Source of the DNA: Candidatus Daviesbacteria bacterium
GTDB lineage: Bacteria; Patescibacteriota; Microgenomatia; Daviesbacterales; UBA10151
Assembly: GCA_021731695.1 (NCBI GenBank)
Contig: JAKFWZ010000078.1
Span: forward strand, 25,073-89,072
DNA length: 64,000 nucleotides
Reading direction: 5' to 3'
The position numbers and the translations under genes are program-made. This document shows, in pieces, positions 9,082 to 36,621 of the stretch (positions are counted from its first letter, which is position 1; each line of letters opens with the position of its first letter). The notes beneath the pieces are model-generated. The model saw only the letters and a list, made by a program, of their open reading frames with translations, made no database searches and was not told the origin of the DNA.

Positions 9082-10218
9082 GTGCGCAAATGGGAAATTT
9101 GTGTTACAGTATCGGGCATGGATTTTACAGAGTTCTTAAAACTAAATTCAAAAAAAATTGATGAAGAAGTTGCAGAAATATTGCAGAATGAATTGGTATT
9201 CACTAAGAGATTAACCCCTCAGCTTAATGAATTTAAAAAAGCATCAATAGGCGGAAAAAGAGTTAGAGGAGCACTGGTATTGCTGGGGTATAGAATTGCC
9301 GGTGGAAAAAATTCTAAAGAAATTCTAAAAGCCTCAGCAGCTTTTGAAATCTTTCAAACTTCAATTCTTGCACAAGATGATGTAATCGATAAATCTTTAA
9401 CCAGAAGAGGGAAAAAATCCTTAGCAGCTTCTTTGGGAAATGATCATAAAGCTTTAGCTGATACGATTTGTCTAACAGATCTGGGATTTTTTATATCATA
9501 TAAAACTCTGGCTCTGCTTAAAATTGAGGAAAAATATAAGAATCAGGCGATAGTGCACTTTTCTGAAATGTCTGTGAGTACTGGTTTAGGTGAAATGCTT
9601 GATGTGGAGATTTCAATGAATAATGACATTAGTGAAGGCGAAATTTTAGAAGTGGCAAAGCTCAAAACTGCAATTTATACAATTTCCGGCCCCTTAGTGT
9701 TAGGGGCAATTCTTGCCGGAGCTAAAGATAAGCTAATTGAAGAACTTGAAAATTTTGGAGAGAATTTAGGAGTTGCATTTCAAATTCAGGACGACATATT
9801 AGGAGTTTTTGGAACTGAAAAAAAAACAGGAAAATCAGATACCTCAGACATAGAAGAAGGGAAGAAAACACTACTCTTAAGTCATGCGCTAGAGAATGCA
9901 AAAGTTGAGTCTAAGAGGACTCTGGTAAAAATCTACGGCAGTAGTAATATTGATAAGTTGGATTTAGAACAGGTTAAAAAGATTTTTACTGAAACAGGAA
10001 GTCTTGATTACGCAAAAGCCAGAGCTGAGGATTATTTTAGCAAGGCAGAAAGCACATTGAAAAATCCGCAACTTGATGTTTTAAGAGATCTGATTGATTT
10101 TATTGCCAAGCGGGAAAGTAGTGGGCTTCAGCTGGCGAATAAACAGAAATCATCCCGCGCCGCAAGAGGAGCCGCGGACTTAATTCCGCGGAGACTCATT
10201 AAAAAAAGGAAAAAATGA
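9082..10218 (+). CDS. trans-Polyprenyl diphosphate synthase (FPP/GGPP synthase family)
   Basis: Two Asp-rich motifs (LAQDDVIDKS and FQIQDDILG). The real start may be Met13 at 9118. Confidence 0.8.
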   Translation: MRKWEICVTVSGMDFTEFLKLNSKKIDEEVAEILQNELVFTKRLTPQLNEFKKASIGGKRVRGALVLLGYRIAGGKNSKEILKASAAFEIFQTSILAQDDVIDKSLTRRGKKSLAASLGNDHKALADTICLTDLGFFISYKTLALLKIEEKYKNQAIVHFSEMSVSTGLGEMLDVEISMNNDISEGEILEVAKLKTAIYTISGPLVLGAILAGAKDKLIEELENFGENLGVAFQIQDDILGVFGTEKKTGKSDTSDIEEGKKTLLLSHALENAKVESKRTLVKIYGSSNIDKLDLEQVKKIFTETGSLDYAKARAEDYFSKAESTLKNPQLDVLRDLIDFIAKRESSGLQLANKQKSSRAARGAADLIPRRLIKKRKK

Positions 10219-10304
10219 CTGAAAATTATATTCCAAAACACATAGCAATAATTATGGATGGAAATGAGTCTTTTTCGAAGCCTCTTTCCTGGCGAATTCT
10301 ATGA
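10215..10304 (+). CDS. 29-codon upstream ORF mimicking the UppS N-terminus, ATGA-coupled on both sides
   Basis: Encodes MTENYIPKHIAIIMDGNESFSKPLSWRIL. Its ATG overlaps the TGA of the prenyl synthase and its TGA overlaps the uppS ATG. It is a degenerate copy of uppS codons 10-25. Confidence 0.3.
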   Translation: MTENYIPKHIAIIMDGNESFSKPLSWRIL

Positions 10305-11047
10305 GTATTAATAAACAACCAAGCGAAGAATTTGTTCCTAGACATATTGCCATCATAATGGACGGAAATAGGCGCTGGGCGCGGGTTAGGGGACTTGAGG
10401 ATATCGAGGGACACGAGAAAGGTTCAGAAACTTTGGAAAAAATTGTAGAAGCCGCAGCCAAAGCGGGTGTTAAAACACTTACGGTTTATGCACTCTCAAC
10501 AGAAAATATAAAGGAGCGAGCTAAAAGGGAGATGGGGGGATTATTTAATTTAATGAAATCTTCTTACAACAAAAAAATAAAGAAGATGATGAAAAACGGG
10601 GTGCGGGTAGAAATCTTAGGAGAATTAAATGGTTTGCCTTCTATAATAAAAAATGTAATTAATGAAATCAGAAAAACATATATAGATAACGAAGCGATTA
10701 AATTAAACATTGCCCTAAATTATGGAGGCAAGAAAGAGCTAGTTGAGGCAGTTAAGGACTTAATAAAAGAAGGAATTGATTTAAATGAGCAAAGCTCGAA
10801 ACTTAAAGAATATGTTTCTAAATTAAGCGAATCTGATATCAGTAAAAAACTTTATACTAAAGGAGATACTGATCCCGAACTTGTCATCAGAACCGGCGGA
10901 AGGATTAGACTTTCAAATTTCTTACTCTGGCAGACTGCATACTCAGAGCTTTATTTTACAAAAACTCTTTGGCCGGATTTTGATGAAAAAGAATTTAAAA
11001 AAGCACTTAGCTGGTACAAAAGACAAAAAAGAAATTTTGGGAAGTAA
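10301..11047 (+). CDS. uppS: Undecaprenyl-diphosphate synthase (cis-prenyltransferase)
   Basis: Motifs PRHIAIIMDGNRRWA and RTGGRIRLSNFLLWQTAYSELYF. Confidence 0.9.
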   Translation: MSINKQPSEEFVPRHIAIIMDGNRRWARVRGLEDIEGHEKGSETLEKIVEAAAKAGVKTLTVYALSTENIKERAKREMGGLFNLMKSSYNKKIKKMMKNGVRVEILGELNGLPSIIKNVINEIRKTYIDNEAIKLNIALNYGGKKELVEAVKDLIKEGIDLNEQSSKLKEYVSKLSESDISKKLYTKGDTDPELVIRTGGRIRLSNFLLWQTAYSELYFTKTLWPDFDEKEFKKALSWYKRQKRNFGK

Positions 11048-11822: not shown

Positions 11823-11829
11823 TCTGGGG

Positions 11830-14019: not shown

Positions 14020-14120
14020 GTCTTAATCAAAACAGAAAATTAATACTTATGTCAACTAATCTGTTTTTTGGTCGGTTTCATCTGAATATTCCAGAACTCG
14101 ATTTACCCGGTTAAATAACT

Positions 14121-15122
14121 TCAGGTCCTTTGCCATAGGCAACCTGAGATTATTAAATTGCTTATAGTCCAAGATCTGTCAGGAGGAGGATTTAATAGTA
14201 CTTCCGTACAAATAGGAGGGGGGAGAGGTGTGGCTGAAGGATAGGGGGTGCTGGTAACGCCGGGGATAGTATAATGCTGGTCTTCGGTTGTAATAATCAA
14301 ATCCTTTGTAAATATCCCGCCTCTTAAAAGATATAAATACTTGGCCTGTTTATTTACTACTTCGGCAGGCTGGACATTTACCGCAAGGCTTCTAATGAAC
14401 TGGATTGCACTCGCAGAGCCCAGATCGGTTTTGTTTAGGGAAATTAAGCTGCCGTTGATTACGAGTTGCTGGGTTGAAGGAGTATTTACACAGCCTGGGC
14501 CGGTTACATACGAGGAGCAAATATATCCCGTAGTACTAGGCAGAGGTAGTCCATTCCCGGTTGAAATTAATACAGCATTAACCTGAGTAACGTTTGAATA
14601 AATATTTATATTGTCCCGGACTATAAAGACTAAGCCCGAATTCATATCGGCATTGGCATAGGTGATATTCCCTGTGATGTTTAAATCTCCCTGGACAAAA
14701 ATAACCTGAACTCCTGTTCCCGTACCTGTTACATTATTGATAGTTAGGGTGTTGGGTTGTAAATAAACTCCACTTCCTGCAGGAAAGTTTAAGGTTTGTA
14801 CCGGACTTTGGGGAGGCGCTGTAGTTTTTTTCGCCGCCGATCTGTTTAGAGCATAGAACTGGTCTTCAAGATCCTGATAGGTTGGAACTTTGAAATCCCG
14901 GTATTGAGCATTGTTTCCGGTAACGCAGATCTGCCCTGGATTCCCGGTGTTCCCGGTTGAGCCGCCGACTGCTGAAATTAACCCTTCATTTAAATCACTT
15001 AGGAGGCATTGAGCAAAAACCTTGGAATCAGTTTTTGATAACAGATAAACATTATAAAAAGTGGTCACAGCAAGTACAAAAAGCAGGAAAAATTTTAAAA
15101 TATCAAGCCATTGCCGGTTCAT
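14121..15122 (-). CDS. Secreted/anchored Thr/Gly/Asn-rich beta-helix-like protein
   Basis: N-terminal TM helix. Body rich in NITGNITYANADMNSGLVFIV-type repeats. Confidence 0.4.
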   Translation of the reverse strand: MNRQWLDILKFFLLFVLAVTTFYNVYLLSKTDSKVFAQCLLSDLNEGLISAVGGSTGNTGNPGQICVTGNNAQYRDFKVPTYQDLEDQFYALNRSAAKKTTAPPQSPVQTLNFPAGSGVYLQPNTLTINNVTGTGTGVQVIFVQGDLNITGNITYANADMNSGLVFIVRDNINIYSNVTQVNAVLISTGNGLPLPSTTGYICSSYVTGPGCVNTPSTQQLVINGSLISLNKTDLGSASAIQFIRSLAVNVQPAEVVNKQAKYLYLLRGGIFTKDLIITTEDQHYTIPGVTSTPYPSATPLPPPICTEVLLNPPPDRSWTISNLIISGCLWQRT

Positions 15123-15149
15123 TTTTCAGGAAGTATGAGTCGGTACATT

Positions 15150-18100
15150 TTAAGGTATATTAATAAATTCATTGGTGTGGACATCGCCTCCGGTTGTTTT
15201 AAGGAAAGGCTTCTTAAGCTTAATAAAAAAGTTTCTGGTTGTAAATTGAGTCTTTAAAGGGTGTACTGAGGTCAGATTTGTAAGAAGTTGATTAACTTCA
15301 GCGCCGGATAGTGCTTTGTTATACAATCTAAATTCATCAATTCTTCCGTTAAAGTAACCATTAAAACCATTTCCCAAGTAAACCGTTGCTGCATTAGCCT
15401 GAACCGCAACGCCGCCAGTATAAGTACCTACTAAAGCTCCATTAAGATAAAACGACCAGGTGCTTGAATTTGATAAGGTGACTGCTACATGATTCCATGT
15501 ATTCAGGGGAAAGGCAGTGGTTGCCCTGTAATTACCATCAACATAAAACCTCAAGCTATTATTTGCATTTTGCACCAGTATAAATGGACCGCCCGAAGTT
15601 AGAGAATTAGCCCACTGGAAAATCCCCTTCGTGCCTGATTCTGAAGGTGCATTAAACCAGAAAGATACAGTTGTATTGCTCAGTGAAGTCCCGGAAATAT
15701 TAGCAGAAACATAATCATTCGCTCCATCAAAATTCCCGGCATTGGCAAACCTACCTGTTGTGACAGTATTAGCTCCATTAGCAGCAGTGCCATGATTAGC
15801 ATTAGGTCCCGAATCCTTAACCTCACCAGCAGTTCCGTTCCAGCTGCCCTCATTCATACTCCAGTGAACCATCAGGGGATCAGGAGTGGTATTAATTGTA
15901 GAAGTTTTAAGTACATTAATCTCTGATCCCGTAAGTAATTTGTTATATATTCTGACATCATCAAGTCTTCCCCTGAAAAAGCCGTTGTTAAATTGTTTAC
16001 CAATCTGGGCTGTATCCCCGGGAATGTGAGTAATATTTGCAGTTCCGGTATTCTGGACGCTGCTCAAATTCCCGTCAACGTAAAATGACACTGTTCCTGC
16101 GGCTCTATTCCAAACACCGGCCAGGTGGTACCACTGGTTTAAGTTTAAGGAAGTGGTATCCGTATACCATCCCCTTACGCCGCCGTCGTTATAGGCATAG
16201 GCCAATTTTTGGTCTGAGCTTCCGGTGCCTGAACTTAAAATACCCCATTCATAACCGGCATTGCTTATATTGCTGGATCTGGCAAATATTATTCTGACAC
16301 CGGTGTTATAGTGAGCCGTTAAATAAACCCAGGTTGATAAGGTATGATTCTGAACTTGAAGCGAAGGGCCAGTTCCAAGAGAGATAATATCATTGCTCCC
16401 GTCAAAACTGCCCGCCCGGCCAAATTTACCTGCAGATATGGTTGTAACCCCTCCCTGAGCTGTTCCGTGATTATTATTTGCAGTTGAATCGGGAACTTGT
16501 GGAGCGGTTCCAGTCCAATTAGCTTCATCAAGCGCCCAATAACCTGCGAGTCCGGTAGTTATATCAACGGGTGTGCCTGGAATTGTTGAAATAACATCTC
16601 CGATATTATTATTTGTGCATGTTAGTGTGTATAAAGCACTGTTAGCCGGGGGGTTAACGAATTGCTGGGACAGTATTGAACCAGTCAAGGATGGATTTAC
16701 GCTTAGGTTATTCCAGTTGGGGTCTGGACCGGGAGCAGTAGGATTATTTGTAATAGCAGATGTCCCGGTGCAAACATCAGCATGAGATACGTTCCAGGTG
16801 AGATTAACTTTATTACCGGAATCTACATCGGGAAGAAATGAAAGTTCATCCCTGCCATCAACCAAAAGAGAGACGTTGGGTTTATTGCAGTCTTTTATTA
16901 AGGTAGGGGTGGCGGTATTAGACATCCTGGATGCGCCGCTGAAATCGTTGATTGCTTCAACAGAGTATTCAATATTGTGAGTTAAGTCTAAAGGGTCAAG
17001 AGGGAAGGATGGATTGTAAGTATCATCAAAATAATCATAAGTTCCGCCTGCGAACGGGAGAATATTTGAATTTATATCTACGGGGGCAGAGTCCAATCCT
17101 ATTCTCTTTCTGCTGATAACATATCGGGTTGCGTTAGCGGAATTAGAAAGAGTTGTTTTCATTAAAGGCGAAGTTCCTGAGCATGAACCGACAGGGCCCG
17201 AGAGAGTAAAAGGACTTGGAGCCGCGCATTCAATGGTTAGAACGGTTCTAGTTATGGGAGCTGACCAAACGCCACTTACCCGACGCCTTAGGCTATAGGT
17301 GTAGGATTGTCCGCCTGTATTTACGACACTTGGAGTTGTTTGAGTCATGGACAAGTTAGGTCCTGTATAGATTGGACTGGCAATATCACTTCTTGATAAT
17401 TCATATTCTGTAGCTCCCGTTACCGGATCCCATGCCAGTGTAATTTGGCCATTTTCAGTATTGGGTTGGCATCCAGGCGCTGCCACGAAAGCAGTTGAGG
17501 AACTATTGGGGTTAAGTCCAAATCTGACTCTGGTATCTATGTCTAAAGCAAAATATACTCCTTGAGGCGTGGTTCTGTGAAACCCCGTCGCTGCATCGTC
17601 GTGGACCACCAAATAATATCCCCCGGGTACATTGCTGAACCTATATGTTGGCGGTTCACCCGGATTTTGTGGAACTGTTGTTTGCTGTGCGTAAAAAGTA
17701 TATCCGCCGCTAGCTTGTCTCGCCCAAAGGCTTATGCTCTGATTATCTAAAGATACCTCAGTATCCTGATAAAAAGCATCCCCGTTAGGAGGGGGGATAT
17801 CATCTATATAGACCCTGCCGAATACTTCATAGGTAGAGGTTGGATTTGTCGGGGTTATAACCGGATCGTCGACGTATACATATATAGTGTCATTACTTGG
17901 GTCATCATCACTATTTGCAGACCCTCCGGTACCCGACGTTCGTCCATCCTTGTCTCCATTCCCTCCGTAACTATTATCAGCTTCATTAATATCCCCCCCA
18001 TCACCAACATCCTCTTGTACGCCCGAAGGAGAGTCATCTCCTCCATATTGAGCATAAACTTCTTGTACAACGCGTAAATAATCAAATATGGGTATATGAT

Positions 18101-18176
18101 TAAATATAAAAAAACCAACAAAAACTAATGAAGTTGTGATGAAAAATGTGTTGAACAAATGACTTATTTTTTGCAT
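15150..18176 (-). CDS. Giant surface protein with three LamG/concanavalin-like domains
   Basis: N-terminal TM helix. A LamG-like unit (NNHGTA..G...F.G..D....SL..WV......W.HLA.V.....G...FYVDG) recurs three times. Confidence 0.6.
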   Translation of the reverse strand: MQKISHLFNTFFITTSLVFVGFFIFNHIPIFDYLRVVQEVYAQYGGDDSPSGVQEDVGDGGDINEADNSYGGNGDKDGRTSGTGGSANSDDDPSNDTIYVYVDDPVITPTNPTSTYEVFGRVYIDDIPPPNGDAFYQDTEVSLDNQSISLWARQASGGYTFYAQQTTVPQNPGEPPTYRFSNVPGGYYLVVHDDAATGFHRTTPQGVYFALDIDTRVRFGLNPNSSSTAFVAAPGCQPNTENGQITLAWDPVTGATEYELSRSDIASPIYTGPNLSMTQTTPSVVNTGGQSYTYSLRRRVSGVWSAPITRTVLTIECAAPSPFTLSGPVGSCSGTSPLMKTTLSNSANATRYVISRKRIGLDSAPVDINSNILPFAGGTYDYFDDTYNPSFPLDPLDLTHNIEYSVEAINDFSGASRMSNTATPTLIKDCNKPNVSLLVDGRDELSFLPDVDSGNKVNLTWNVSHADVCTGTSAITNNPTAPGPDPNWNNLSVNPSLTGSILSQQFVNPPANSALYTLTCTNNNIGDVISTIPGTPVDITTGLAGYWALDEANWTGTAPQVPDSTANNNHGTAQGGVTTISAGKFGRAGSFDGSNDIISLGTGPSLQVQNHTLSTWVYLTAHYNTGVRIIFARSSNISNAGYEWGILSSGTGSSDQKLAYAYNDGGVRGWYTDTTSLNLNQWYHLAGVWNRAAGTVSFYVDGNLSSVQNTGTANITHIPGDTAQIGKQFNNGFFRGRLDDVRIYNKLLTGSEINVLKTSTINTTPDPLMVHWSMNEGSWNGTAGEVKDSGPNANHGTAANGANTVTTGRFANAGNFDGANDYVSANISGTSLSNTTVSFWFNAPSESGTKGIFQWANSLTSGGPFILVQNANNSLRFYVDGNYRATTAFPLNTWNHVAVTLSNSSTWSFYLNGALVGTYTGGVAVQANAATVYLGNGFNGYFNGRIDEFRLYNKALSGAEVNQLLTNLTSVHPLKTQFTTRNFFIKLKKPFLKTTGGDVHTNEFINIP

Positions 18177-20215: not shown

Positions 20216-21415
20216 ATGTATTTTTATAAAGCCATTATTCTGGCTCTGCTATTTAGTATTCCGTTTGTTCCCATTCAACTAGACCCAATCATAAACTATC
20301 TAATTCATTTTTTAGCCATAATCCTTCTACCAATATTCCTGCCTCAACTTAAAAAAGACCTCCAGTCAAAAAATCTAATCACCATTTTTTTTATTGTTTT
20401 TCTGCTTTCCTCACTAATCTCCACATTTTTCTCCATTAACCCGGGAATAAGTCTTCGGATATTTTTTCTTTATCTATCTTATTTTGTGATATTTACCGCT
20501 TCAAAAAAGATTTTTAGCGAAAGATCTGATCAAAAACTTTTGGTAAGTTTATTAATACTGGCAACCTTATTTTTATCGCTTATATCCTTTTACAATACAG
20601 TTTTTCTAAACTACGTTAATAAAGATTTAATAGGATCAAGTTTTATGTGGCTTTATTATGGACACAACACACTGGCAAATCTGCTTCTTTATATAATCCC
20701 CTTATCGGTTTATTTCCTTCACTTAACATGGGAAAACTCTGTTAAAAGATATTTACTTTCCTTAATAACTGTTTTTTTGCTAATAAGCTTTTATTTGACA
20801 TTTGCCAGGGGAGCTTATCTGGCTCTTATCTTTTCCTTAATAATTACCATACTGCTATTCATAGATTTTTCTAAGAGCAATGTTAGATTGAGTTTAGTTA
20901 TTTTTTTATGGTTGTTAATGATCTCCTTCTTTTCCATAAATCTAATAGCATCAAATTTGAATTTGCATAAATCTGCTAATTTAATATCTGGTAGAGATAT
21001 CTACTGGCAGGAGGCTTTGAAAAATTTTCAGACAAAACCTTTAACCGGAACGGGTCTTAATACTTATAAAATTGTAAGCTTTAAGCAAACAAAAAAAGGT
21101 ATATTAAAAACCGACTCCGCTCATAACTTTTTCCTGCAAATGCTTTCTGATGGGGGAATATTGCTATTTTTATCGAGTATAGGATTAGTCGTAAGCTTAA
21201 TTATTTCAATCTTCAAAAAAATCAAACAAGTTTGTCGCTTCGCGATAAAAGAGCAAAAAAAAGATTATTTCTTACTATCGCTTTGGGTAGGATTTGTAAG
21301 TTCAATCTTGTATAATCTGGTGGATATTGGCTGGCAACTGCCTTTCTGTTTTCTCATTTTCTGGATAATCTCTGCCATTTTAATTCAAGATGAAAACCAT
21401 CTCAAACAAAGCTAA
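20216..21415 (+). CDS. O-antigen ligase/polymerase-family membrane protein
   Basis: About 10 TM segments and the Wzy_C-like loop YWQEALKNFQTKPLTGTGLNTY. Confidence 0.65.
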   Translation: MYFYKAIILALLFSIPFVPIQLDPIINYLIHFLAIILLPIFLPQLKKDLQSKNLITIFFIVFLLSSLISTFFSINPGISLRIFFLYLSYFVIFTASKKIFSERSDQKLLVSLLILATLFLSLISFYNTVFLNYVNKDLIGSSFMWLYYGHNTLANLLLYIIPLSVYFLHLTWENSVKRYLLSLITVFLLISFYLTFARGAYLALIFSLIITILLFIDFSKSNVRLSLVIFLWLLMISFFSINLIASNLNLHKSANLISGRDIYWQEALKNFQTKPLTGTGLNTYKIVSFKQTKKGILKTDSAHNFFLQMLSDGGILLFLSSIGLVVSLIISIFKKIKQVCRFAIKEQKKDYFLLSLWVGFVSSILYNLVDIGWQLPFCFLIFWIISAILIQDENHLKQS

Positions 21416-22379
21416 ATTTACAATTGTTATTCCAACAATCAGAGAAAATAATATTAATGAATTTCTCTCTAAGTGGCAGCATGAGTTCAAAGGTCAAGAC
21501 ATATTAATTATAGAAGACAACCCAACTAAAACTTTTAATCTCCCTAGTTGGGTAGCTCACTTTTCTTGGGAGGACATAGACAAAGAGTTAGGTAAAGATT
21601 CCTGGATAATCCCCAGAAGAGTTGCTGGCATCAGATCTTACGGCTTTTTAAAAGCCTGGCAAAAAAAATCTCAATATATTTTAACTTTAGATGATGACTG
21701 TCTTCCTGAAAAATATGAAGAAAAGTTTCTATCTCTAGTAGAAAAAGCTTTAGAAACAAAATGGGATTCAGATCAGTGGTGGAATACAGTTAAAGGCTTC
21801 TACCCTAGGGGTTACCCCTACAAAATTAGAAAACTAAAACAGGAAACTATTATTCATCATGGACTTTGGTCAAATATCCCAGACCTAGATGGCATCACCC
21901 AAAAACAAAATCCAAACTTAAGAACTGAGCCATTCGCTAAAGTTGAAAAAGTACCTTTTGGAAAGTTTTATTCAATGTGTTCAATGAACTTAAGCTTTAA
22001 AATAAAAGCTGTTCCCATGCTGTACTTTCTTTTAATGAGTGAAGATAGACAAGGGAATAAGTGGGAATATGATAGGTTTGATGATATCTGGGCGGGAATT
22101 TTTTCCAAAAAAATAGCAGACCACTTAGGGTTCGCTATCTCCTCAGGTGCCCCATCTGTTATTCATACCAGGGCATCAAATGTTGATACTAATATTCAAA
22201 AAGAAAAAAAGGGTATAGAGGTAAATGAATGGATATGGGAAAAAATTTCCAAAATCAAATTTCACTCAAATGATCTTAAAGGTTGTTATCTTGAGGTTGC
22301 AGAAGAGATAGAAAATATAAATCCATATTTCAAAAAATTATCACAGGCCATGAAGACCTGGATTAGTCTACTAAAATAA
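21390..22379 (+). CDS. GT-A glycosyltransferase, reversibly-glycosylated-polypeptide (GT75)-like
   Basis: Motif LTLDDDCLPE (DDD). N-terminus FTIVIPTIREN. Confidence 0.45.
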   Translation: MKTISNKAKFTIVIPTIRENNINEFLSKWQHEFKGQDILIIEDNPTKTFNLPSWVAHFSWEDIDKELGKDSWIIPRRVAGIRSYGFLKAWQKKSQYILTLDDDCLPEKYEEKFLSLVEKALETKWDSDQWWNTVKGFYPRGYPYKIRKLKQETIIHHGLWSNIPDLDGITQKQNPNLRTEPFAKVEKVPFGKFYSMCSMNLSFKIKAVPMLYFLLMSEDRQGNKWEYDRFDDIWAGIFSKKIADHLGFAISSGAPSVIHTRASNVDTNIQKEKKGIEVNEWIWEKISKIKFHSNDLKGCYLEVAEEIENINPYFKKLSQAMKTWISLLK

Positions 22380-23149
22380 TGAAAAAAAGATTTTTTAAAA
22401 CTAAGCAAATATTTGATATACCTGTTGCCAATACCTCACTTAAAGAAATAATACCTTTGATTAATACCCTAATTGAAACTTCTAATAAAAAAACTTTTTT
22501 TGGTTTGAACTCACATAATTTATCAGTAAGTCTAAAGAACAAAGGTTATAAGCAAGCCCTGCAAAAAGCAACTATGGTTTATCCTGAAGGGATAGGGACT
22601 ATTATAATTTCAAATATAGTGGGTAGCAAACTAAAGGGAAAAACCACTCTAATGGATTTTATTTATGAAATTTTGTCATCTGCCGAAAAAAATAAATGGT
22701 CAGTTTATTTGCTGGGAGGCAAACCTAATATCGCAAAAGAGGCTGTAGCTGAAATAAAAAAAAAATTTCCTAAAATTAAAATTTCAGGATCAGATCATGG
22801 CTATTTTAAACCCAATCAGGAAAGCAGTATTATTGGTAAAATCAATAAAACCAACACGGATATTCTATTCGTGGCGTTAGGGTCTCCAACCCAGGAACTA
22901 TGGATTGACAGAAATTTAGAAAAAATAAAAGCAAAAGCATTCTTTGGGATTGGGGGATCAATAGATCATCTGTCAGGCAAAATTCCCAGAGCTCCAGCAT
23001 GGATGCACAAGCATGGTTTGGAATGGATTTTTCGCTTAATCAAAGAACCAAAAAGATTATGGAGACGCTATTTATTGGAAAACTTCATTCTTTTAGGAAT
23101 AGTTATGAAAGAAGTTTTGAGTGATAATAATAATGAAGAGAGTTTTTGA
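22379..23149 (+). CDS. WecB/TagA/CpsF-family glycosyltransferase (GT26)
   Basis: Motif LLGGKPNIAKEA...ILFVALGSPTQELWI. Confidence 0.8.
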   Translation: MKKRFFKTKQIFDIPVANTSLKEIIPLINTLIETSNKKTFFGLNSHNLSVSLKNKGYKQALQKATMVYPEGIGTIIISNIVGSKLKGKTTLMDFIYEILSSAEKNKWSVYLLGGKPNIAKEAVAEIKKKFPKIKISGSDHGYFKPNQESSIIGKINKTNTDILFVALGSPTQELWIDRNLEKIKAKAFFGIGGSIDHLSGKIPRAPAWMHKHGLEWIFRLIKEPKRLWRRYLLENFILLGIVMKEVLSDNNNEESF

Positions 23150-23759
23150 TATTTCCATAAGTTTTTTGCTACTAATTTTTCTGATTCCCCTCTGGCTGAT
23201 TTTATTTCTAGTTTTAAAAATTTTTTCACCAGGACCCTTCATCTTTACTCAGCTGCGAATGGGCAAAAATAGCAAGCCCTTTAAAATTTATAAAATCAGG
23301 ACCATGATAAGGGACGCTGAGGAAAAAAAGAAGTCACTCCTGAAATTTAATGAAGTCCAAGCACCAGTTTTTAAAATTAAGAACGATCCAAGGTTCATTA
23401 AATTTGGCAAAGTCTTATCCAGTACCGGCCTTGATGAGTCTATTCAAGTATTGAATGTTTTAAAAGGGGAGATGTCCTTAGTTGGTCCTCGACCATTGCC
23501 TATTAGTGAAGCCAAAAAACTGCCTATTAAATATAAAAAACGCTTTTCCTCACTCCCAGGAATTACCTCAGAATGGGTGATTGAAGGGGCTCACCATATG
23601 AGCTTAAAGCAATGGATGAATTTAGATTTAGAATATGTTAAAAAGGGAAATATCTTTTTTGATTGTTACATTTTATTTGCAACTCTTGAAATAATCTCAA
23701 AAAAACTTATAAACTATGGAAAAGAAATTAATAAAAAACCCAGTCCCCCTAAAGATTAA
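23121..23759 (+). CDS. Undecaprenyl-phosphate sugar phosphotransferase (bacterial sugar transferase)
   Basis: Motifs RVFDISISFLLL and LNVLKGEMSLVGPRP. Confidence 0.8.
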   Translation: MIIIMKRVFDISISFLLLIFLIPLWLILFLVLKIFSPGPFIFTQLRMGKNSKPFKIYKIRTMIRDAEEKKKSLLKFNEVQAPVFKIKNDPRFIKFGKVLSSTGLDESIQVLNVLKGEMSLVGPRPLPISEAKKLPIKYKKRFSSLPGITSEWVIEGAHHMSLKQWMNLDLEYVKKGNIFFDCYILFATLEIISKKLINYGKEINKKPSPPKD

Positions 23760-25746
23760 AAACATTATTTTTATTATTGCTGACACCTTAAGGTTTAAAA
23801 GCACTGGCCTTAGTGGTCTCAACCCATCGCCAACCCCGTTTATAGATTATTTAGCCAGCATGGGTATCAATTTTACTAATGCTTATGCATCCATCACCTG
23901 CACAGATCCTTCTATCACATCTTTGATGAGTGGGAAATATCCCTTATCAATTGGTCTTGTAAACCATGCTAGATTTGTCACGGAAGAAGAAAAAAGCAAT
24001 ATTCATAATTTAGTTTTACTCCCAGAAATATTGAGTAAAAATGGATTTAAAACCATAGCTATAGATTGGGTAGGAAGATGGCATAAAAAAGGTTATCAAT
24101 TCTACTCAAATGGATTAAGCAGTTCTACAAGAAGCGACTTTATTATGGATAAAATTCCCTCACTAGCTATTTTAATGAGAAGTTTTGATAAAATTTCTCT
24201 GAGAACTTTAAACAGAGAATTTTTCATCAACGGTTATTATGCTTTTTACCCAAATCCCAAAATACCGTATGATCCCGCTGATAGAGTAGTTGATGAAGCT
24301 ATTATTAAGTTAAAAAAAAATGAAAAACAAAAAAAATTTATTTATCTTCACCTTTGGGATGCACATTGGCCACACACAAGGTCAACAGGATTGAGCTCTT
24401 ATTTAAAAAACTCTATTGAAGATACATATTTAGCTGAAGTTAGTTTTCTAGATCAGCAATTAGCTCGGCTATTCGCTTATCTAAAACAGTCTGATAAGTT
24501 GAGTGAAACTTTAATAATTTTTACAGCCGACCATGGAGAGAATTTTTACGAACATGATAACCCCCTAACTCATCAAAATTTATATGAGGATGTTGTAAAA
24601 ATTCCTTTAATTCTCTATCATCCCAATCTCAAGCAAAAAAAAACTTCTTCTTTAGTCCAACATACCGATATTTTCCCCACAATACTTGAATTTCTAAAGA
24701 TAAAGTTTAATCAAAAAATTGATGGAGTCAGTCTATTACCACTAATCAATTCCACCAAACAAAGTATTCATAAAGTCGTTTTTTTTGAAGATATAGTTTA
24801 TAGAAGAATAAAATTTAGCAATTTTGTTAAAAGAAGAAGGGGATTAAGAAACAAAAAATATAAATACATCGCCACCTATAAAGGCTCGGAAAAAGAGATA
24901 TATAAAATTAACCTCAGGGAAGACCAGAAAATTTATTCTGAAGAACTTTATGATCTGAGTAAAGATCCTTTAGAGCAATTAAATATAGCAAATATTAAGC
25001 CCAACATAATTAAATCATTAAGAAAAGATTTAACAAAAACTGTACTCCACCAAAATTTTAATAGAATAATAAATGATCCTCTAATCGGTTCAAAAGTTAA
25101 GAATTCAGTTTCAATTCTTAAACAGGCATTTAGAAAATATCCAAGCAAAAAACTAATCATAGCCTGGAAAGGAGGTAAAGATACCACAGTTATGATGCAT
25201 ATTATTCGTTGCATCTTTAAAGAGGAAATACCTATCAGGGTTTTTTTTAATGATACAACTTTGGAGTTTAAGGAGACGTATCAATTTATTGAAAAAATAA
25301 AAAAACTATGGAACCTTAATTTAGTAGTAATCAAACACGATAAAAAAGAACTTTTAGAGTACTACAAAACTAAAGATTTAAATAAAAAGAAAGAACTTTC
25401 CAGAATAATGAAAATTACAGTAATAAATAAAGCTCTTGAAAAATACAAATTAAAAGGTTTCTTGCTTGGGATAAGGAAAGATGAAAATCCAGCTAGGAAA
25501 AACGAAAAATACTTTTCAAAAAGAAAAAACCATATTAGAATCCATCCCTTACTTGATTGGACTGAATCAGACATCTGGTACTACACCCAAAATATGGGAG
25601 TCCCATACTCGGTACTTTATGATCAAGGATATCGTTCAGTTGGAGAACAACCCTTTACTTCTAAATCTTACTCAAATGAAAGATCTGGAAGAGAGCAAGA
25701 AAAAGAAGCATCAATGGGAAGACTCAGAAAACTCGGGTATTGGTAA
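23716..25746 (+). CDS. Fusion protein: sulfatase-family domain (degenerate FGly signature) plus PAPS-reductase/PP-loop domain
   Basis: N-terminal half has CTDPSITSLMSGKYP (sulfatase signature with R changed to I) and TADHGE. C-terminal half has IAWKGGKDTTVMMH, a PP-loop of the PAPS reductase family. Confidence 0.55.
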   Translation: MEKKLIKNPVPLKIKNIIFIIADTLRFKSTGLSGLNPSPTPFIDYLASMGINFTNAYASITCTDPSITSLMSGKYPLSIGLVNHARFVTEEEKSNIHNLVLLPEILSKNGFKTIAIDWVGRWHKKGYQFYSNGLSSSTRSDFIMDKIPSLAILMRSFDKISLRTLNREFFINGYYAFYPNPKIPYDPADRVVDEAIIKLKKNEKQKKFIYLHLWDAHWPHTRSTGLSSYLKNSIEDTYLAEVSFLDQQLARLFAYLKQSDKLSETLIIFTADHGENFYEHDNPLTHQNLYEDVVKIPLILYHPNLKQKKTSSLVQHTDIFPTILEFLKIKFNQKIDGVSLLPLINSTKQSIHKVVFFEDIVYRRIKFSNFVKRRRGLRNKKYKYIATYKGSEKEIYKINLREDQKIYSEELYDLSKDPLEQLNIANIKPNIIKSLRKDLTKTVLHQNFNRIINDPLIGSKVKNSVSILKQAFRKYPSKKLIIAWKGGKDTTVMMHIIRCIFKEEIPIRVFFNDTTLEFKETYQFIEKIKKLWNLNLVVIKHDKKELLEYYKTKDLNKKKELSRIMKITVINKALEKYKLKGFLLGIRKDENPARKNEKYFSKRKNHIRIHPLLDWTESDIWYYTQNMGVPYSVLYDQGYRSVGEQPFTSKSYSNERSGREQEKEASMGRLRKLGYW

Positions 25747-27214
25747 CTTTACTAGATCTCGATTTAGACAGGATATTTATTAGTAAACCGAGCATTAGAA
25801 AAAAAAGTATTCCAACTCTATCTCCAAATGATCTCATTGTCATAAGGCTGTTGAAAAAAAACGTTATATAAGACGCAAATAGAACAAGTGAAAGTTGCTT
25901 TTTCTCCTCAGGAACGAAGCGAATAAAATGCAATATAAAAAAGAAAGATGTCACTGAAAAAACGGACACTATCAATAGTCCAGTTAATCCTTGTTCTGTG
26001 GCAATTAGCAGCTGAAAGTTATGCACAGCAGCAAGAAATTTTGTTGAAGTATCTGACTCTGTAAAGTCATAATTTGCAAAATAATACAAAAACCCACCTC
26101 CGCCAACTCCCAACAAAGGATTACTTCTAATAATCTGAACAGATTGATCCACTAATTCTTCTCTAGTCAAAAGACTATTATCTTCCAAACTGAAGCTTAG
26201 AAATCGATTAGTTCCAAAGCCACTAATTACCATTACTGAAAAAATCAACACTATAGCCAAAAAGTCAATTTTTATCTCCTCAAAAATTTTTCTAATACTT
26301 ATGACTCCGTATCTCCAAAGTAAAAAAATTGTAGTCGCATAAGCAAAAATACAGCTCACTAAGCCCCATCTAGATAAAGCAATAAGTGAAGTAAAAATAC
26401 AAGCAAAAAATGCTAAGTGACCACCAGTCCTATACCATTTATTAGGTGATAAAAACGATAAAACAGCAATGGGTAAAAGAAGAGCTAAATAATTGGTCAA
26501 ATAATTAGGATGAGATAATGTACCGACAACTCTAAACGATGCATATTGAATAGGTCGATTAACTGCTTGATGAGCGTAATTTAAACGGTCGACGCTCTCT
26601 AAAGGTATTCCAATAACCCCACCATATATAAACTGAAAAAAAGAAATAATCCCTTCCAAGAAAATTGTTCCAAGTAAGCCAACTACAATAAAAGAGATTG
26701 CCTGTCTATTAAGGTTGAGCCGGGAGAACACAAAGTAAACTGATAAACTCAAAATAAATTTTAATAACCAAACTGAAGAAGCATCCAAATCAACCCCATT
26801 TAAAATAGAAATTTCCGAAATAATTAAAAAGAATAGTAGTACTAACTCAAAAAAGAAAAGCCTTATTTTTTGATGACTTAAATTGTATTGTCTCACCAAA
26901 AAAAAAGCTAAAAAAACCAGTAACAAGTTAGCAAATGATAAAAAAACAATTCCATATTGACTTTGACTTAAATTAATCTTTTGAGAGGATATGTTAGATA
27001 ATTGGATCTGAGAACTAGGAGCAATTGGTAAAAAAATAATAAATAAAAACAAAACAAGAGGTAGCAAGTTAACCTTATAAATTAAAAATCTTGATAAAAC
27101 TCTAGAAAATAACTTGTAGGACTTGCTTGAAATGGAATTTGTTAAAAAAGCATTGATAATAAAACTGGAATATTCATGGTCAATGGATAAACTTTTGGTT
27201 TTTTTAATTATCAT
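25724..27214 (-). CDS. Polytopic membrane protein, O-antigen ligase/polymerase-like
   Basis: At least 10 TM helices, in glycan-cluster context. Confidence 0.45.
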   Translation of the reverse strand: MIIKKTKSLSIDHEYSSFIINAFLTNSISSKSYKLFSRVLSRFLIYKVNLLPLVLFLFIIFLPIAPSSQIQLSNISSQKINLSQSQYGIVFLSFANLLLVFLAFFLVRQYNLSHQKIRLFFFELVLLFFLIISEISILNGVDLDASSVWLLKFILSLSVYFVFSRLNLNRQAISFIVVGLLGTIFLEGIISFFQFIYGGVIGIPLESVDRLNYAHQAVNRPIQYASFRVVGTLSHPNYLTNYLALLLPIAVLSFLSPNKWYRTGGHLAFFACIFTSLIALSRWGLVSCIFAYATTIFLLWRYGVISIRKIFEEIKIDFLAIVLIFSVMVISGFGTNRFLSFSLEDNSLLTREELVDQSVQIIRSNPLLGVGGGGFLYYFANYDFTESDTSTKFLAAVHNFQLLIATEQGLTGLLIVSVFSVTSFFFILHFIRFVPEEKKQLSLVLFASYITFFFNSLMTMRSFGDRVGILFFLMLGLLINILSKSRSSKVTNTRVF

Positions 27215-28050
27215 TTAACACCAACTATATAAGCCTCAGTAATCTTTGTCCCATTGCTCACAAAAGAAACTTTTTCGCCTATAATTATTGCCTGATCCTT
27301 TTTAAAAACGATGGTATTGCCAAATTTTTGAACTAGCATCTTAACTCTTAAAGTTATGTCAACTTTTTGAGGATCAGTAGTTAGAATCTTCTGTCCATTA
27401 GCATCATCCACTGTAATTTCAGCAGGTACTACTTTTTTTTCTAAAATCTCGACCCTTGCTTGTGGATTCTCTAGATTAGTCATAACGCCAGGTTTAATGC
27501 TATCTGCATACCATGGCCACTGACCATAAATCTTAAGTGCTACTTCAATAGGTTCAAACTTTTCCTCAGTACTACTATCTTCTCTAATTTCAGAAATAGT
27601 TCCATTAATTTGTCCATTAGTCAGCCTTAGCTCAATAGGGGAACCAACTTTAATTATTTTATTTTTATATTCATATTCACCAGTTCTGGAATTAATCTTT
27701 GTTTTAAGCTTTAACTGAACCCTAATATCTTTATTAGAAGTTGGTCCATTAGTTGCATTAACAGAAGATTGTAAATTGCTATAAGTAATTACATCTGAAA
27801 CTTCAGCTATAGTCTCCCCAGTTGGACTTTTCTCAATATCTCCCTCTTTTACAGAATAAGCTCTAAATACTGGAATATTTGCGTCCATCACCTCAACATT
27901 TATCCATTTTTCTTCAGGATTCAGAAACTTATATAATATAAACCCACCCAAAATAACTATGATAATAATCAAATAATCCAGCAGCTTTAGTTTTCTAAGT
28001 AGGGAAGTGAGTTTCATCAAGTGTAAACCTATCTTAAATAGATTTCCCAA
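27211..28050 (-). CDS. N-terminally anchored hypothetical protein
   Basis: One TM helix then a soluble domain. The gene overlaps the upstream gene by 4 nt. Confidence 0.4.
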   Translation of the reverse strand: MGNLFKIGLHLMKLTSLLRKLKLLDYLIIIIVILGGFILYKFLNPEEKWINVEVMDANIPVFRAYSVKEGDIEKSPTGETIAEVSDVITYSNLQSSVNATNGPTSNKDIRVQLKLKTKINSRTGEYEYKNKIIKVGSPIELRLTNGQINGTISEIREDSSTEEKFEPIEVALKIYGQWPWYADSIKPGVMTNLENPQARVEILEKKVVPAEITVDDANGQKILTTDPQKVDITLRVKMLVQKFGNTIVFKKDQAIIIGEKVSFVSNGTKITEAYIVGVK

Positions 28051-28079: not shown

Positions 28080-28871
28080 ATGAAAAAAGATCTAAAACTT
28101 ACCTCATCATTATTTGTTGGCAGGTTCCAACCCTTTCACAAGGGGCATCAAACTTTAATAGAAACAGTTTTAAAAAAAGGCAAACCTGTGGTTATTGCTT
28201 TAAGAGATACAGAAATCTCTCATAAAAATCCTTATACAGTTCATGAAAGATGGTCCATGATTCAGAAAGCCCTTAAAAAATATGGCGAGCTTGTCAAAAT
28301 TGTAGTAATACCTGATATTGATGAAATTTGTTACGGCAGGGAAGTGGGCTATGACATCAGAAAAATAGATCTGGACGAGAGAACCGAAAGTATCTCCGGG
28401 ACAAAAACCAGAGAAAAAAACCCACCCACAAAACCCATCATCTGGCTGACTGGTCAATCAGGTGCAGGCAAATCAACTTTAGCTAATGCTCTCCAAAAAG
28501 AAATTGGGGGAGTAATCTTAGATGGGGATGAAATGAGGGAAACTATCTCTCAAGGCCTAGGCTTTTCAAAGATAGACAGGGAAACTCATAACTTAAAAGT
28601 AGCAAGTCTTGCTTTGATGCTTGCAAAAAAAAATATAGTTATAGTCTCAGTCATAGCTCCCTTTGCAGATACCAGAGTAAAAATAGATAAATTAATTAAA
28701 CCAATCTGGGTTTATGTTAAAAGAAAATTACCTAAAGATTCGAGTAAGCCTTATGAAGAACCTCGCGATCCTGATATAGGAGTCGAATCTGACAAACAAA
28801 CTACAGCTAAACAGGTAGCAGTAATAACTGAATTTCTTAAAAAAACTAACCATAAATTTGGTAACCTCTAA
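28080..28871 (+). CDS. Fusion: small HxGH nucleotidyltransferase domain plus adenylylsulfate (APS) kinase
   Basis: N-terminal domain has GRFQPFHKGH (cytidylyl/adenylyl-transferase superfamily). C-terminal domain has IWLTGQSGAGKST...LDGDEMR..GLGFS..DR..N..., the CysC signature. Confidence 0.7.
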   Translation: MKKDLKLTSSLFVGRFQPFHKGHQTLIETVLKKGKPVVIALRDTEISHKNPYTVHERWSMIQKALKKYGELVKIVVIPDIDEICYGREVGYDIRKIDLDERTESISGTKTREKNPPTKPIIWLTGQSGAGKSTLANALQKEIGGVILDGDEMRETISQGLGFSKIDRETHNLKVASLALMLAKKNIVIVSVIAPFADTRVKIDKLIKPIWVYVKRKLPKDSSKPYEEPRDPDIGVESDKQTTAKQVAVITEFLKKTNHKFGNL

Positions 28872-34134: not shown

Positions 34135-35028
34135 CTATGGTTTTAAGTTCGGAAGAAATAGCGCGTAATCGAGTCCGTTAACAGTACCGTCGCCGTTTAA
34201 ATCCGCTTTTTTCTTTAAATCTGTATCAAGCTCATTGCCCCATGCGCTATAAACAACAGAGAGATCGATGCTATTAATTAACGAGTCAGAATTGAAATCA
34301 AACGATGCGGCAGAGGAACTTGCTACAGGATTACGGGAGGCTAAAGGGCGTGAGGTAGCAAGTGGTTTTATTGAGGCTGAAGCAGAGGCTTGAAGAGATT
34401 GAGGGGGGTTTGGGGCTGCGCTTTTAACAGAGACTATGGCATTTTGGACAGGAGCTAAAGAGTTTGTCGTGCTGCCAAGAATATTTATCTGTGTTTGGGA
34501 ATTGTCCAGTGAGATAATTGTTGAGGGCGCTGCTTTTTTTGAAGTAAAACTCAAAGTTGCGACTACTCCGGAACCTGAAATTCCGGCATTGCCATCTGTC
34601 CCCAAGGAAACTGATGCAGAGCCCGGGGCCATTACCGGCGCAATTAAAACTTTGGGCAAAAACTCTTTGGGTGTTATGCTTGTCAACTCTAAAATTTCAG
34701 GATCATATTTTATGGCCAGCTTAGCGCTGGTGATTTGATTGTTATTGGCGTTTGCAAAAATATCAATGCTAAATTTATCTCCAACTTTAGTGTCCGTAGC
34801 CGGTGGTTTAAAGGAGAGATCTGTAGGAGTTAAGTTTGCCTGGGTTTGAGTCTGCTGAGGTCTCTGGGTCAAATAGACTCCTGCTCCAACCCCGACAACC
34901 AATAAAAATACAGCAGTTAAGGAGCCTAAAATTTTGGGATTTAAAATACTGTTTTTAAAAATGCTTTTATTTTTATAGCTTTCAGCTGAGATGACGATTG
35001 GTTTATCTTTGGAAGGTATGATTTGCAT
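34135..35028 (-). CDS. Anchored surface protein with cohesin-like domain and C-terminal dockerin-like EF-hand pair
   Basis: N-terminal TM helix. Block DKFSIDIFANANNNQITSAKLAIKYDPEILEL. C-terminus DLNGDGTVNGLDYALFL. Confidence 0.5.
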   Translation of the reverse strand: MQIIPSKDKPIVISAESYKNKSIFKNSILNPKILGSLTAVFLLVVGVGAGVYLTQRPQQTQTQANLTPTDLSFKPPATDTKVGDKFSIDIFANANNNQITSAKLAIKYDPEILELTSITPKEFLPKVLIAPVMAPGSASVSLGTDGNAGISGSGVVATLSFTSKKAAPSTIISLDNSQTQINILGSTTNSLAPVQNAIVSVKSAAPNPPQSLQASASASIKPLATSRPLASRNPVASSSAASFDFNSDSLINSIDLSVVYSAWGNELDTDLKKKADLNGDGTVNGLDYALFLPNLKP

Positions 35029-36031: not shown

Positions 36032-36341
36032 CTTGCGTAAAAGTAGGAAAAAGACCTGTCGATACTATCTAACCGGATAGCTTCGACTCCAAAAGAGTGG
36101 TGGGAAAAAACACGATCAATTAAATGATTGTGAGACAAGAGTATAAGTTTCATGAAAGTGAAGCCAAGCTCTGTCAATTCCAAATTTTAGTAAGCAAAGC
36201 TTGCGATAGTTCCGGCTAACGCCGTGTAACTATCTAAGTAATACTTACTTCGAAAACAATAAATCGAAATTTCACTTTCACAAGTGATACAGCGTTTTAG
36301 AGTTGGAAAAACTTTTTAAGTGTTTTAAAAACACTTTATTT

Positions 36342-36384
<43 letters not shown>

Positions 36385-36589: not shown

Positions 36590-36621
<32 letters not shown>

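Follow-up and report, generated by a model that had tools for sequence, protein, structure and literature searches.

The fusion gene and its two domains

A stretch of 64,000 nucleotides from a Candidatus Daviesbacteria bacterium (GenBank assembly GCA_021731695.1, contig JAKFWZ010000078.1, positions 25,073 to 89,072 of the forward strand), hereafter the window, was analyzed for a gene that joins a sulfatase-fold domain to a domain of the 3'-phosphoadenosine 5'-phosphosulfate (PAPS) reductase family. The open reading frame (ORF) starts with ATG, spans exactly 23716..25746 on the forward strand by ORF calling, and encodes 676 amino acids (aa). Pfam assigned Sulfatase (PF00884, aa 15–327, E=2.2e-47), the sulfatase C-terminal subdomain SGSH_C (aa 289–441), and PAPS_reduct (PF01507, aa 480–649, E=3.6e-42) to the product. 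The fusion reported in the preliminary description of this DNA was thus real, and the strings CTDPSIT, SGKYP, and WKGGKDT were present as given there. The N-terminal S1-sulfatase-fold domain (PF00884 and SGSH_C, aa 15–441; 23758..25038, forward strand) belongs to a clade with a Thr nucleophile. Two long inter-domain linker helices (aa 429–452 and 458–474; 25000..25137, forward strand) were recognized in the secondary structure of the AlphaFold2 (AF2) model, and the C-terminal PF01507 domain, hereafter mini-CysD, covers aa 455–676 (25078..25743, forward strand). The model of the whole protein had a pLDDT of 87 and a pTM of 0.86. When the same fusion was sought in other genomes, as had been proposed earlier, the two-domain architecture recurred in approximately 25 sequence clusters at 48–55% identity, and an assembly artefact was ruled out because these clusters share it. 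One ortholog from Daviesbacteria is recorded as UniRef100_A0A1F5IMP1 (KKQ15236.1).

As no transmembrane (TM) segment or signal peptide was found in a sequence scan of the 676-aa protein, the fusion is predicted to be cytoplasmic. No Sulfotransfer-family Pfam match was obtained for it, and by this measure the P-loop-like fold of the canonical PAPS-dependent sulfotransferases (Sulfotransfer_1/2/3), with its 5'-PSB and 3'-PB motifs, was absent. Homologs are currently named "sulfatase-like hydrolase/transferase", "PAPS reductase domain-containing protein", or "hypothetical" in databases. Sulfatase-fold sulfotransferases and CysD are already known separately; the pairing or fusion of these two known parts, the Thr signature, and a mini-CysD without CysN appear to be new. 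The earlier statement that this architecture was not described for sulfotransferases was correct in that full-text literature searches returned no description of the fusion or of the gene pair presented below, but it was too broad for the sulfatase fold itself, which has a precedent in the archaeal proteins Agl30 and Agl31.

The N-terminal domain has the two-subdomain alkaline phosphatase (AP)-like fold of the S1 sulfatases in PF00884. Its fold was nearest to S1 carbohydrate sulfatases in the structure comparison, with 6HHM among the top matches, and its nearest NCBIfam models were arylsulfatases. Scores of 27 bits against a cutoff of 970 for the lipoteichoic acid (LTA) synthase LtaS and of 20 against 500 for phosphoethanolamine (PEtN) transferase placed it outside both of these groups, in agreement with the sulfatase-family assignment made at first. 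The Mn-arylsulfatase of E. faecium, an NCBIfam match, was considered as a precedent for the Thr and rejected, since it uses Cys/formylglycine (FGly).

The motif I-T-C-T-D-P-S-I-T (aa 60–68; 23893..23919, forward strand) was evaluated by alignment to the Ser-type sulfatase 2qzu and by conservation. In the ungapped HMMER alignment, the Pro of the query lay on the motif Pro; therefore, T63 (codon 23902–23904) of T-D-P-S-I occupies the FGly position, and C62 lies one residue upstream. The previous interpretation of CTDPSIT as a degenerate C-x-P-x-R motif held insofar as the Arg is missing, with I67 in its place, while its register was off by one residue. The column of I67 contained I, H, F, or V and never R in the fusions and the partner clade, and the FGly pattern C/S-x-P/A-x-R is absent from the N-terminal domain. 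T61, T63, and P65 were invariant in 25/25 fusions. The C62 column was variable (C/K/S/A in the 25 fusions; Y/W/K/C in the wider clade). Position 63 was Thr in 48 and Ser in 1 of the 49 proteins of the partner clade, and all homologs with a locatable motif, among them Asgard and TACK archaeal proteins and sequences of as little as 25% identity, read T/S-x-P-[SA]-x.

The remaining active-site residues were similarly conserved. The metal-ligand motif D272-H273-G274-E275 and H286 (24529..24573, forward strand; 2qzu alignment and conservation) were found in 49/49 members of the partner clade, in which D23 was also invariant. A further motif, H-L-W-D-A-H-W-P-H (aa 212–220; 24349..24375, forward strand), was defined by conservation in these 49 proteins, with H217 invariant, D/E215 in 45/49, and H or N at position 212; it probably forms a second metal or acid site. 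The pair of sulfate-binding Lys residues of true sulfatases (K123 and K302 of arylsulfatase A) is replaced: R121 takes the position of the first Lys in the fusion family, H286 that of the second in the 2qzu alignment, and H123 and H217 are kept. SGKYP, which had been taken for sulfatase signature II, is the tail of signature I (…LM-S-G-x-Y-P) according to the PROSITE patterns, and G-F-K-T…G-R-W-H (aa 110–123) is by the same patterns the equivalent of signature II. Because the Thr nucleophile and the metal/His constellation are invariant, the sequence indicates that the N-terminal domain is a working transferase or hydrolase and not a dead binding module. The sulfo-ester-binding, non-hydrolytic domain predicted earlier is not supported by this conservation.

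In the C-terminal domain, the PP-loop W-K-G-G-K-D-T (aa 484–490; 25165..25185, forward strand; alignment) is of the ATP type. W-K-G-G-K-D-T-T aligned with F-N-G-G-K-D-C-T of human FAD synthase, and E. coli CysH reads S-S-F-G-I-Q-A-A at this position. Within the C-domain family, 150/166 members contained [TKS]GGKD[ST], 159/166 ended in GYW or GYF, and 127/166 had no Cys in the last 45 aa. The domain ends …ERSGREQEKEASMGRLRKLGYW, with neither the ECGLH Cys nor any invariant Cys. It shares Pfam family, fold, and a comparable NCBIfam score with CysH (118 bits against a cutoff of 154), but it differs from CysH in lacking the C-terminal catalytic Cys that forms the thiosulfonate and in having a canonical instead of a degenerate PP-loop. 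Because no catalytic Cys is present, the domain cannot act as a thiol-dependent reductase and, judged by its residues, is not a reductase. The GGKD[ST] loop together with the missing ECGLH Cys therefore predicts ATP-dependent adenylyl transfer, namely the synthesis of adenosine 5'-phosphosulfate (APS), and not PAPS binding. Accordingly, the PAPS-reductase-family assignment of the C-terminal half was retained at the level of PF01507, and its PAPS binding and reductase character were abandoned.

The C-terminal half was about equally near to CysH and CysD by NCBIfam and passed no curated cutoff (PRK02090 for CysH, 117.6 bits vs 154; TIGR00434, 115.6 vs 165; PRK05253 for CysD, 104.9 vs 195). As the sole query, the C-domain retrieved a family of stand-alone proteins of approximately 220–225 aa. 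The next relatives, with 31–35% identity over about 95% of the domain, were proteins of 260–267 aa that are genuine CysD, as they scored 300–354 bits against the cutoff of 195 and adjoined a CysN GTPase. Like CysD, which is the small subunit of the GTP-regulated ATP sulfurylase CysDN and corresponds to NodP in Nod-factor sulfation, mini-CysD has the PF01507 fold, the ATP-type PP-loop (S/T-x-G-K-D-S in CysD), and an ERxGR…ME.LR..GY[FM]-type tail (ERSGR…M..LR.LGY[WFM]), and the core motifs K-I/T, GIRxDE..R..E, HPLLDWTE, and YRS.G are common to both. Unlike CysD, it is without the CC/CxxC cysteines and without two insertions of about 29 aa and about 17 aa, reaches 105–116 bits against 195, and has an AP-superfamily partner in place of an adjacent CysN/NodQ; neither the surroundings of the fusion nor the C-like loci annotated with Pfam showed a CysN (GTP_EFTU) gene. 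Compared with eukaryotic FMN adenylyltransferase (FMNAT), the PAPS-reductase-like domain of FAD synthase, similarity was confined to two stretches, and the alignments did not show the CysD-type tail in that enzyme. From these features we infer ATP-dependent adenylyl transfer with release of pyrophosphate (PPi). Sulfate is the most likely acceptor, giving APS, because the nearest sequence kinship is with CysD.

The C-terminal tail E-R-S-G-R-E-Q-E-K-E-A-S-M-G-R-L-R-K-L-G-Y-W (25678..25743, forward strand), which is common to bona fide CysD by alignment, was not restricted to this domain. A tail of the form …KE..M..LR.LGY[WF] also ended 14/80 stand-alone N-type proteins without a PAPS_reduct core, such as P0026 (KEQLMANLKSLGY) and a Haloarcula homolog (…RLEALGYR). 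Further carriers were P0033, P0036, P0041, P0049, P0057, P0060, P0067, P0070, P0075, P0117, and P0119. In the general form …(K/D)E..L/M..L(K/R).LGY[WFIL], found also at the end of the protein encoded at L096 9016–10533, the same portable tail ends CysD, the mini-CysD domain, and the 14/80 Thr-type sulfatase-like proteins. It was not found in the N partners of operonic C-then-N pairs, and its helix had low confidence in the AF2 model. The tail may be a docking peptide common to both partners.

Pairing of the two domains across bacteria and archaea

To place the fusion in a wider context, species-representative genomes were scanned with C-domain peptides as the only seeds, which gave 80 loci that were processed by ORF calling and clustering. 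The scan contained 65 stand-alone C-like genes and 7 fusions. An AP-superfamily gene was directly adjacent to 46/65 stand-alone C-like genes and within three genes for 51/65; several of the 14 exceptions lay at contig ends. Among the 28 same-strand pairs, the gap was ≤10 bp in 18, and both gene orders were observed. Pairs were present in Patescibacteria, Desulfobacterota, Nitrospirota, and one metagenome-assembled genome (MAG) of Aenigmarchaeota (DPANN). The partner was of one of two kinds, a Thr-type PF00884 protein of the cytosol or a PF01663 protein of the nucleotide pyrophosphatase/phosphodiesterase (NPP) type with a Ser/Thr nucleophile, the latter usually membrane-anchored. Moreover, the C-like domain was fused to PF00884 in the lineage of the window and separately to PF01663 in a Bathyarchaeia genome (L062) and in L087. 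Because of the adjacency counts and the two kinds of fusion, the association of the C-domain with the AP superfamily is judged from these gene arrangements to be functional and to have been built more than once.

The PF01663 partners carried the motif T/S-x-P-A-W, were usually approximately 680 aa long with two N-terminal TM segments, and were divergently transcribed, and the PF01663 fusions, from the Bathyarchaeia MAG and one other MAG, had no TM segment. PF01663-family genes were located at L062 1404–3470, L087 6175–8454, L091 7933–9972, and L092 7977–9992.

Glycan cassette and sulfate-activation context

The fusion gene lies within a lipid-linked glycan cassette whose members were as listed in the preliminary description. 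On the forward strand, Pfam identified a Wzy_C membrane protein (O-antigen ligase/polymerase-like; 20216..21415), an RGP/GT75-family protein (PF03214, E=5e-48; 21390..22379), a GT26 WecG/TagA-family glycosyltransferase (22379..23149), and a Bac_transf priming phosphoglycosyl transferase (23121..23759) that shares 44 nt with the beginning of the fusion gene. On the reverse strand, a second Wzy_C membrane protein (25724..27214) and a membrane-anchored DUF4330 protein (27211..28050) follow; Pfam and locus comparison identified them as a conserved downstream neighbor of the fusion and a conserved cassette member, respectively. GT26 was the conserved upstream neighbor in L004, L005, L010, L012, and L013 and lay two genes downstream of the fusion in L002. 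L004 and L012 also have, beside the fusion, the RGP/GT75 gene, a bacterial member of a family best known as plant UDP-arabinopyranose mutase. Lipid carrier would be supplied by a polyprenyl diphosphate synthase and an undecaprenyl-diphosphate (undecaprenyl-PP) synthase, UppS (9082..11047, forward strand), preceded by a full mevalonate pathway at 2134–9055 (MVD, two GHMP kinases, thiolase, HMG-CoA synthase, and HMG-CoA reductase). The same layout of mevalonate genes, polyprenyl synthase, and UppS upstream of the cassette was observed in L002. N-type proteins without a C-domain, sometimes in two copies, also occurred inside glycan clusters (L004, L006, and L007).

Beyond DUF4330, a gene at 28080..28871 (forward strand) encodes a 263-aa protein with a nucleotidyltransferase (NTase) domain (CTP_transf_like, NMNAT-like, aa 10–112) fused to an APS-kinase-like domain (aa 108–255). 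The NTase domain reads HxGH…ISGTxxR, and the APS-kinase-like domain keeps the P-loop, LDGD..R, and DR..H/N and is without the KGLY lid. The preliminary description had placed weight on this neighbor. However, at least 970 homologs at 62–83% identity were found across Patescibacteria in varied contexts, and among the fusion loci with 10-kb flanks the gene was within 10 kb of the fusion only in the window and L002; it was consequently dropped as a dedicated partner. Likewise, 243-aa genes in the same slot of L004 and L006 were rejected as diverged versions of it, as they encode unrelated membrane-anchored proteins. Copies of approximately 260 aa were located at L002 16276–17040, L092 7215–7997, L093 7001–7780, and L094 4910–5686, and a mini NTase–APS-kinase was also present in L076. 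In L092, the 260-aa protein is clustered with two Thr-type sulfatase-like genes, a PF01663 gene, and a C-like gene; in L093, its cluster includes a Sulfotransfer_1/3 gene of the canonical type as well as glycosyltransferases and an ABC-2 exporter; near the L094 and L095 genes lies one of the FGly-generating enzyme (FGE)-sulfatase family. These further contexts, too, have a connection to sulfate. Annotations of the homologs range from APS kinase and cytidyltransferase-like to dephospho-CoA kinase. The protein is a candidate for a compact PAPS-synthase-like enzyme in general use among Patescibacteria, and its domains could alternatively represent a CoA/NAD-type NTase with a 3'-kinase.

The connection to activated sulfate made earlier was substantiated by other loci. 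In a Levybacteria-type lineage (L014–L020, L022, L023, L026, and L091), which was counted as one independent observation because the genomes are related, the stand-alone ortholog was 58–60% identical to the C-domain of the window. It was flanked by a PF01663 protein on one side and on the other by a PUA_2, ATP-sulfurylase, and APS_kinase protein (E=6e-83 and 1e-56). In L091, an arylsulfotransferase (PF05935) lies beside the PUA–ATP-sulfurylase–APS-kinase gene (10671–13692), a combination that was unexpected in an organism presumed to be without assimilatory sulfate reduction. In the window itself, tblastn over the 64 kb for Sat/PAPS synthase, arylsulfotransferase, and the PF01663 partner matched only the APS-kinase-like part of 28080–28871.

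Other features of the window were recorded as follows. The 16S rRNA gene (36336–37743, of which only approximately 1408 nt were matched) lies approximately 24.5 kb from the 23S gene (62260–64000), with tRNA-Ile (43435–43510) 5.7 kb after the 16S gene and tRNA-Ala (61791–61863) just before the 23S gene; the rRNA operon is unlinked, with protein genes in between, in a low-GC bacterial genome that its homologs assign to the Patescibacteria/Microgenomates lineage. Surface-type proteins are encoded at 12532–18176 and 34135–35028, both on the reverse strand, and include a 1008-aa Laminin_G_3/pentaxin-like protein, a cohesin and dockerin protein, and a 495-aa protein with Shufflon_N-like and Peptidase_S74 (intramolecular chaperone) domains. 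Genes resembling those for ribosomally synthesized and post-translationally modified peptides were observed near sulfatase-like/mini-CysD loci of different Microgenomates (L004 1–1758 and L091 1–4184), with ScmC in both, QueC/PqqD in L004, YcaO, nitroreductase, and Hint in L091, and a recurring NTP_transf_5.

Proposed reaction and alternative explanations

Sulfatase-fold proteins that act on glycans in biosynthesis have a published precedent. Agl30 (VNG1056C) and Agl31 (VNG1057C) of Halobacterium salinarum (UniProt Q9HQQ3 and Q9HQQ2) have the sulfatase fold, and deletion and heterologous expression showed that they place sulfate on particular sugars of the N-glycan linked to dolichol phosphate (Zaretsky et al., mBio 2025; PMC11980604). 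Agl30 is membrane-bound, Agl31 is cytosolic with 6HHM as its best structural match, and the donor, nucleophile, and mechanism are not discussed in that paper (PMC11980604). By this published description, the fusion protein resembles them in its fold with 6HHM as a top match, its glycan cluster, its lipid-linked glycan, and its cytoplasmic side, and differs in that Agl30 and Agl31 are single-domain proteins for which no CysD-like partner has been described. Among plasmid-borne relatives of the N-terminal domain, the best was a "sulfatase" of Haloarcula from a glycan cluster (E=2e-41, 28% identity, 96% coverage) with the signature T-D-P-A-V, GRWH, and ADHGE…H, as in the N-domain clade. On the Haloarcula halobia plasmid NZ_CP119788.1 (L096 3500–10533), two Thr-type sulfatase-like genes, with T-D-P-A-V and T-G-P-S-H, occur in a glycan cluster together with dTDP-rhamnose genes, GT2, a nucleotide-sugar dehydrogenase, and ABC transporter genes. 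These two are candidates for Agl30/31-like sulfotransferases.

The domain identities, the active-site residues, the missing reductase Cys, the cytoplasmic location, the pairing, and the glycan context form the frame for a functional proposal. It is probable that the C-domain makes a nucleotide-activated anionic group, which the N-domain then transfers to a glycan. The specific form of this proposal, which we favor only tentatively, is a bifunctional cytoplasmic "activate-and-transfer" enzyme for the sulfation of an undecaprenyl-PP-linked glycan. The target would be the glycan built by the neighboring Bac_transf, GT26, GT75, and Wzy-like proteins. Mini-CysD, independent of CysN, would convert ATP and most likely sulfate to APS and PPi. 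Subsequently, the metal-dependent N-domain, with T63 in place of FGly, would move what is most likely a sulfuryl group to a sugar hydroxyl, using as donor either APS from the C-domain or PAPS from a nearby NTase–APS-kinase or Sat–APS-kinase. Transfer would probably proceed through a covalent Thr-O-SO3, that is, the first half-reaction of a sulfatase in reverse. Fusion or operonic coupling would pull the unfavorable formation of APS by its immediate consumption, in place of GTP hydrolysis by CysN. The most ambitious version holds that the fusion and the pair of mini-CysD with a Thr-type AP-superfamily protein are a self-contained, PAPS-independent machine that turns ATP and free sulfate into a glycan sulfate ester through channeled APS and a sulfo-threonine; we consider this version rather unlikely.

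Several observations weigh against sulfation as the function. A genuine Sat–APS-kinase is adjacent in some loci, which makes a second sulfate adenylyltransferase look redundant, and a sulfate transporter, Sat, and CysQ were not found in the parts of the window that were examined. In L006, a near-identical cassette contains the N-type protein alone, and the C-domain is dispensable there. The structure comparison does not separate the C-domain among CysD, CysH, and FMNAT, and since its scores are below both cutoffs, its substrate could instead be a phosphate ester. Furthermore, the combination of a Thr nucleophile, DHGE, and His in place of Lys resembles phosphoryl-transfer members of the superfamily (PEtN transferases/EptA, LtaS, and NPP). 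A stand-alone N-type homolog, P0047 (41% identical), was found in a cluster (L008 1149–10424) resembling that for O-methyl phosphoramidate (MeOPN). The MeOPN-like gene set there is complete, with a kinase of the PRK05849 family (861 bits), a GATase resembling gamma-glutamyl-CDP-amidate hydrolase, an NTP_transferase, and an "APS kinase" of PRK05541, after which come two unknown genes, P0047, and, directly downstream of it, a methyltransferase. Cj1415 of Campylobacter is an APS-kinase homolog, in keeping with the PRK05541 match in L008. Campylobacter Cj1415–1418 make CDP-phosphoramidate 3'-phosphate (PMC11800397). Because of L008 and the Campylobacter homologs, APS-kinase homologs and N-type proteins can serve chemistry other than that of sulfate, and phosphoramidate transferases may also exist outside Campylobacter, within the sulfatase-like clade. 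The MeOPN pathway of C. jejuni is similar to the present case in that a nucleotidyltransferase and an APS-kinase-type 3'-kinase provide a PAPS-like donor for the decoration of a surface glycan, and differs in that the window is without a glutamine kinase or amidohydrolase.

These points lead to the strongest competitor, a phosphoryl-type transferase. The C-domain would adenylylate a phosphate-bearing precursor to ADP-X, or the NTase–kinase would make a 3'-phospho-NDP-X, and the N-domain would move P-X through a phospho-Thr, giving a teichoic-acid-like or MeOPN-like decoration. This would be the chemistry of LtaS, EptA, and OpgB with a nucleotide donor. In LtaS, EptA/MCR-1, and OpgB, envelope glycans or lipids receive an anionic group by way of a covalent Thr intermediate, and the N-domain resembles these enzymes in its Thr nucleophile within PF00884, DHG(E), and a downstream His; unlike the fusion, which has no TM segment and scores 20–27 bits against their models, they are extracytoplasmic, carry multi-TM anchors, and use phospholipid donors. 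The invariant DHGE, the His for Lys, and the position of P0047 also agree with phosphoryl transfer, as do the alternative partner PF01663, a nucleotide pyrophosphatase/phosphodiesterase family, and the GT26/TagA and priming transferase genes, which resemble a teichoic-acid linkage-unit context. In addition, APS-kinase homologs are not sulfate-specific, given Cj1415–1418 (PMC11800397). Against it, the full-length relatives and the tail of the C-domain are of the CysD type, the stand-alone orthologs have a genuine ATP sulfurylase–APS kinase and an arylsulfotransferase as neighbors, and the Agl30/31 precedent is sulfation. Phosphoryl transfer was regarded as unlikely, although it deserves the closest attention among the competitors of glycan sulfation.

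An improbable explanation is a GTP-independent sulfate-activation complex in which mini-CysD makes APS, the AP-superfamily partner is an accessory pyrophosphatase or a 3'-phosphatase for 3'-phosphoadenosine 5'-phosphate, and the sulfotransferase is encoded elsewhere. A CysD-like domain without CysN would indeed need another thermodynamic driver, two different AP families can be the partner, and AP-superfamily Thr enzymes are classical phosphomonoesterases and pyrophosphatases. The N-type proteins that occur without a C-domain in glycan clusters (L004, L006, and L007) nevertheless fit a glycan-directed transferase better, and the full two-subdomain carbohydrate-sulfatase fold is kept. Loci with Sat–APS-kinase would need no second activation system, and Agl30/31 confer position-specific sulfation on heterologous expression (PMC11980604).

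The model of the preliminary description, in which a PAPS-binding reductase-like domain hands sulfate to a non-hydrolytic pseudo-sulfatase, was considered very doubtful. PF01507 membership, the near-equal CysH and CysD scores, the APS-kinase-like neighbor, and the adjacency of PAPS synthase in related loci speak for it. However, the loop is GGKD[ST] in 150/166 family members where sulfonucleotide reductases have a degenerate one, the C-terminal Cys is missing, and the invariant nucleophile and metal ligands make the N-domain catalytic. Finally, an ordinary degradative sulfatase or phosphatase fused by chance to an unrelated sulfur-assimilation domain is hardly credible despite the strong Pfam and structural likeness to catabolic S1 sulfatases, given that the FGly motif is missing (T-D-P-S-I), that the location is cytoplasmic, that different phyla have conserved the pairing or fusion, and that the gene lies within a biosynthetic glycan cassette.

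It was only in 2025 that genetic work tied sulfatase-fold proteins to glycan sulfation, without a donor or mechanism. The present analysis offers a mechanistic lead, as an invariant Thr nucleophile accompanies a conserved ATP-using CysD-like partner in bacteria and archaea, sometimes fused and sometimes beside a PAPS synthase. If the phosphoryl-type alternative were true, the system would be a nucleotide-dependent cytoplasmic counterpart of the LtaS/EptA transferases. If the proposed sulfation is true, it would define a new sulfotransferase system and would explain the FGly-less "sulfatase-like hydrolase/transferase" genes in many biosynthetic glycan clusters, and systematic misannotation as "arylsulfatase" or "PAPS reductase" would be corrected. 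In its PAPS-independent version, it would represent a third mechanistic class of sulfotransferases, besides those with PAPS-dependent Sulfotransfer folds and the aryl sulfotransferases that depend on His, and would supply the missing donor and mechanism for archaeal Agl30/31-type enzymes. For the Patescibacteria, glycan sulfation of this kind would predict envelopes that are sulfated or decorated with similar anions.

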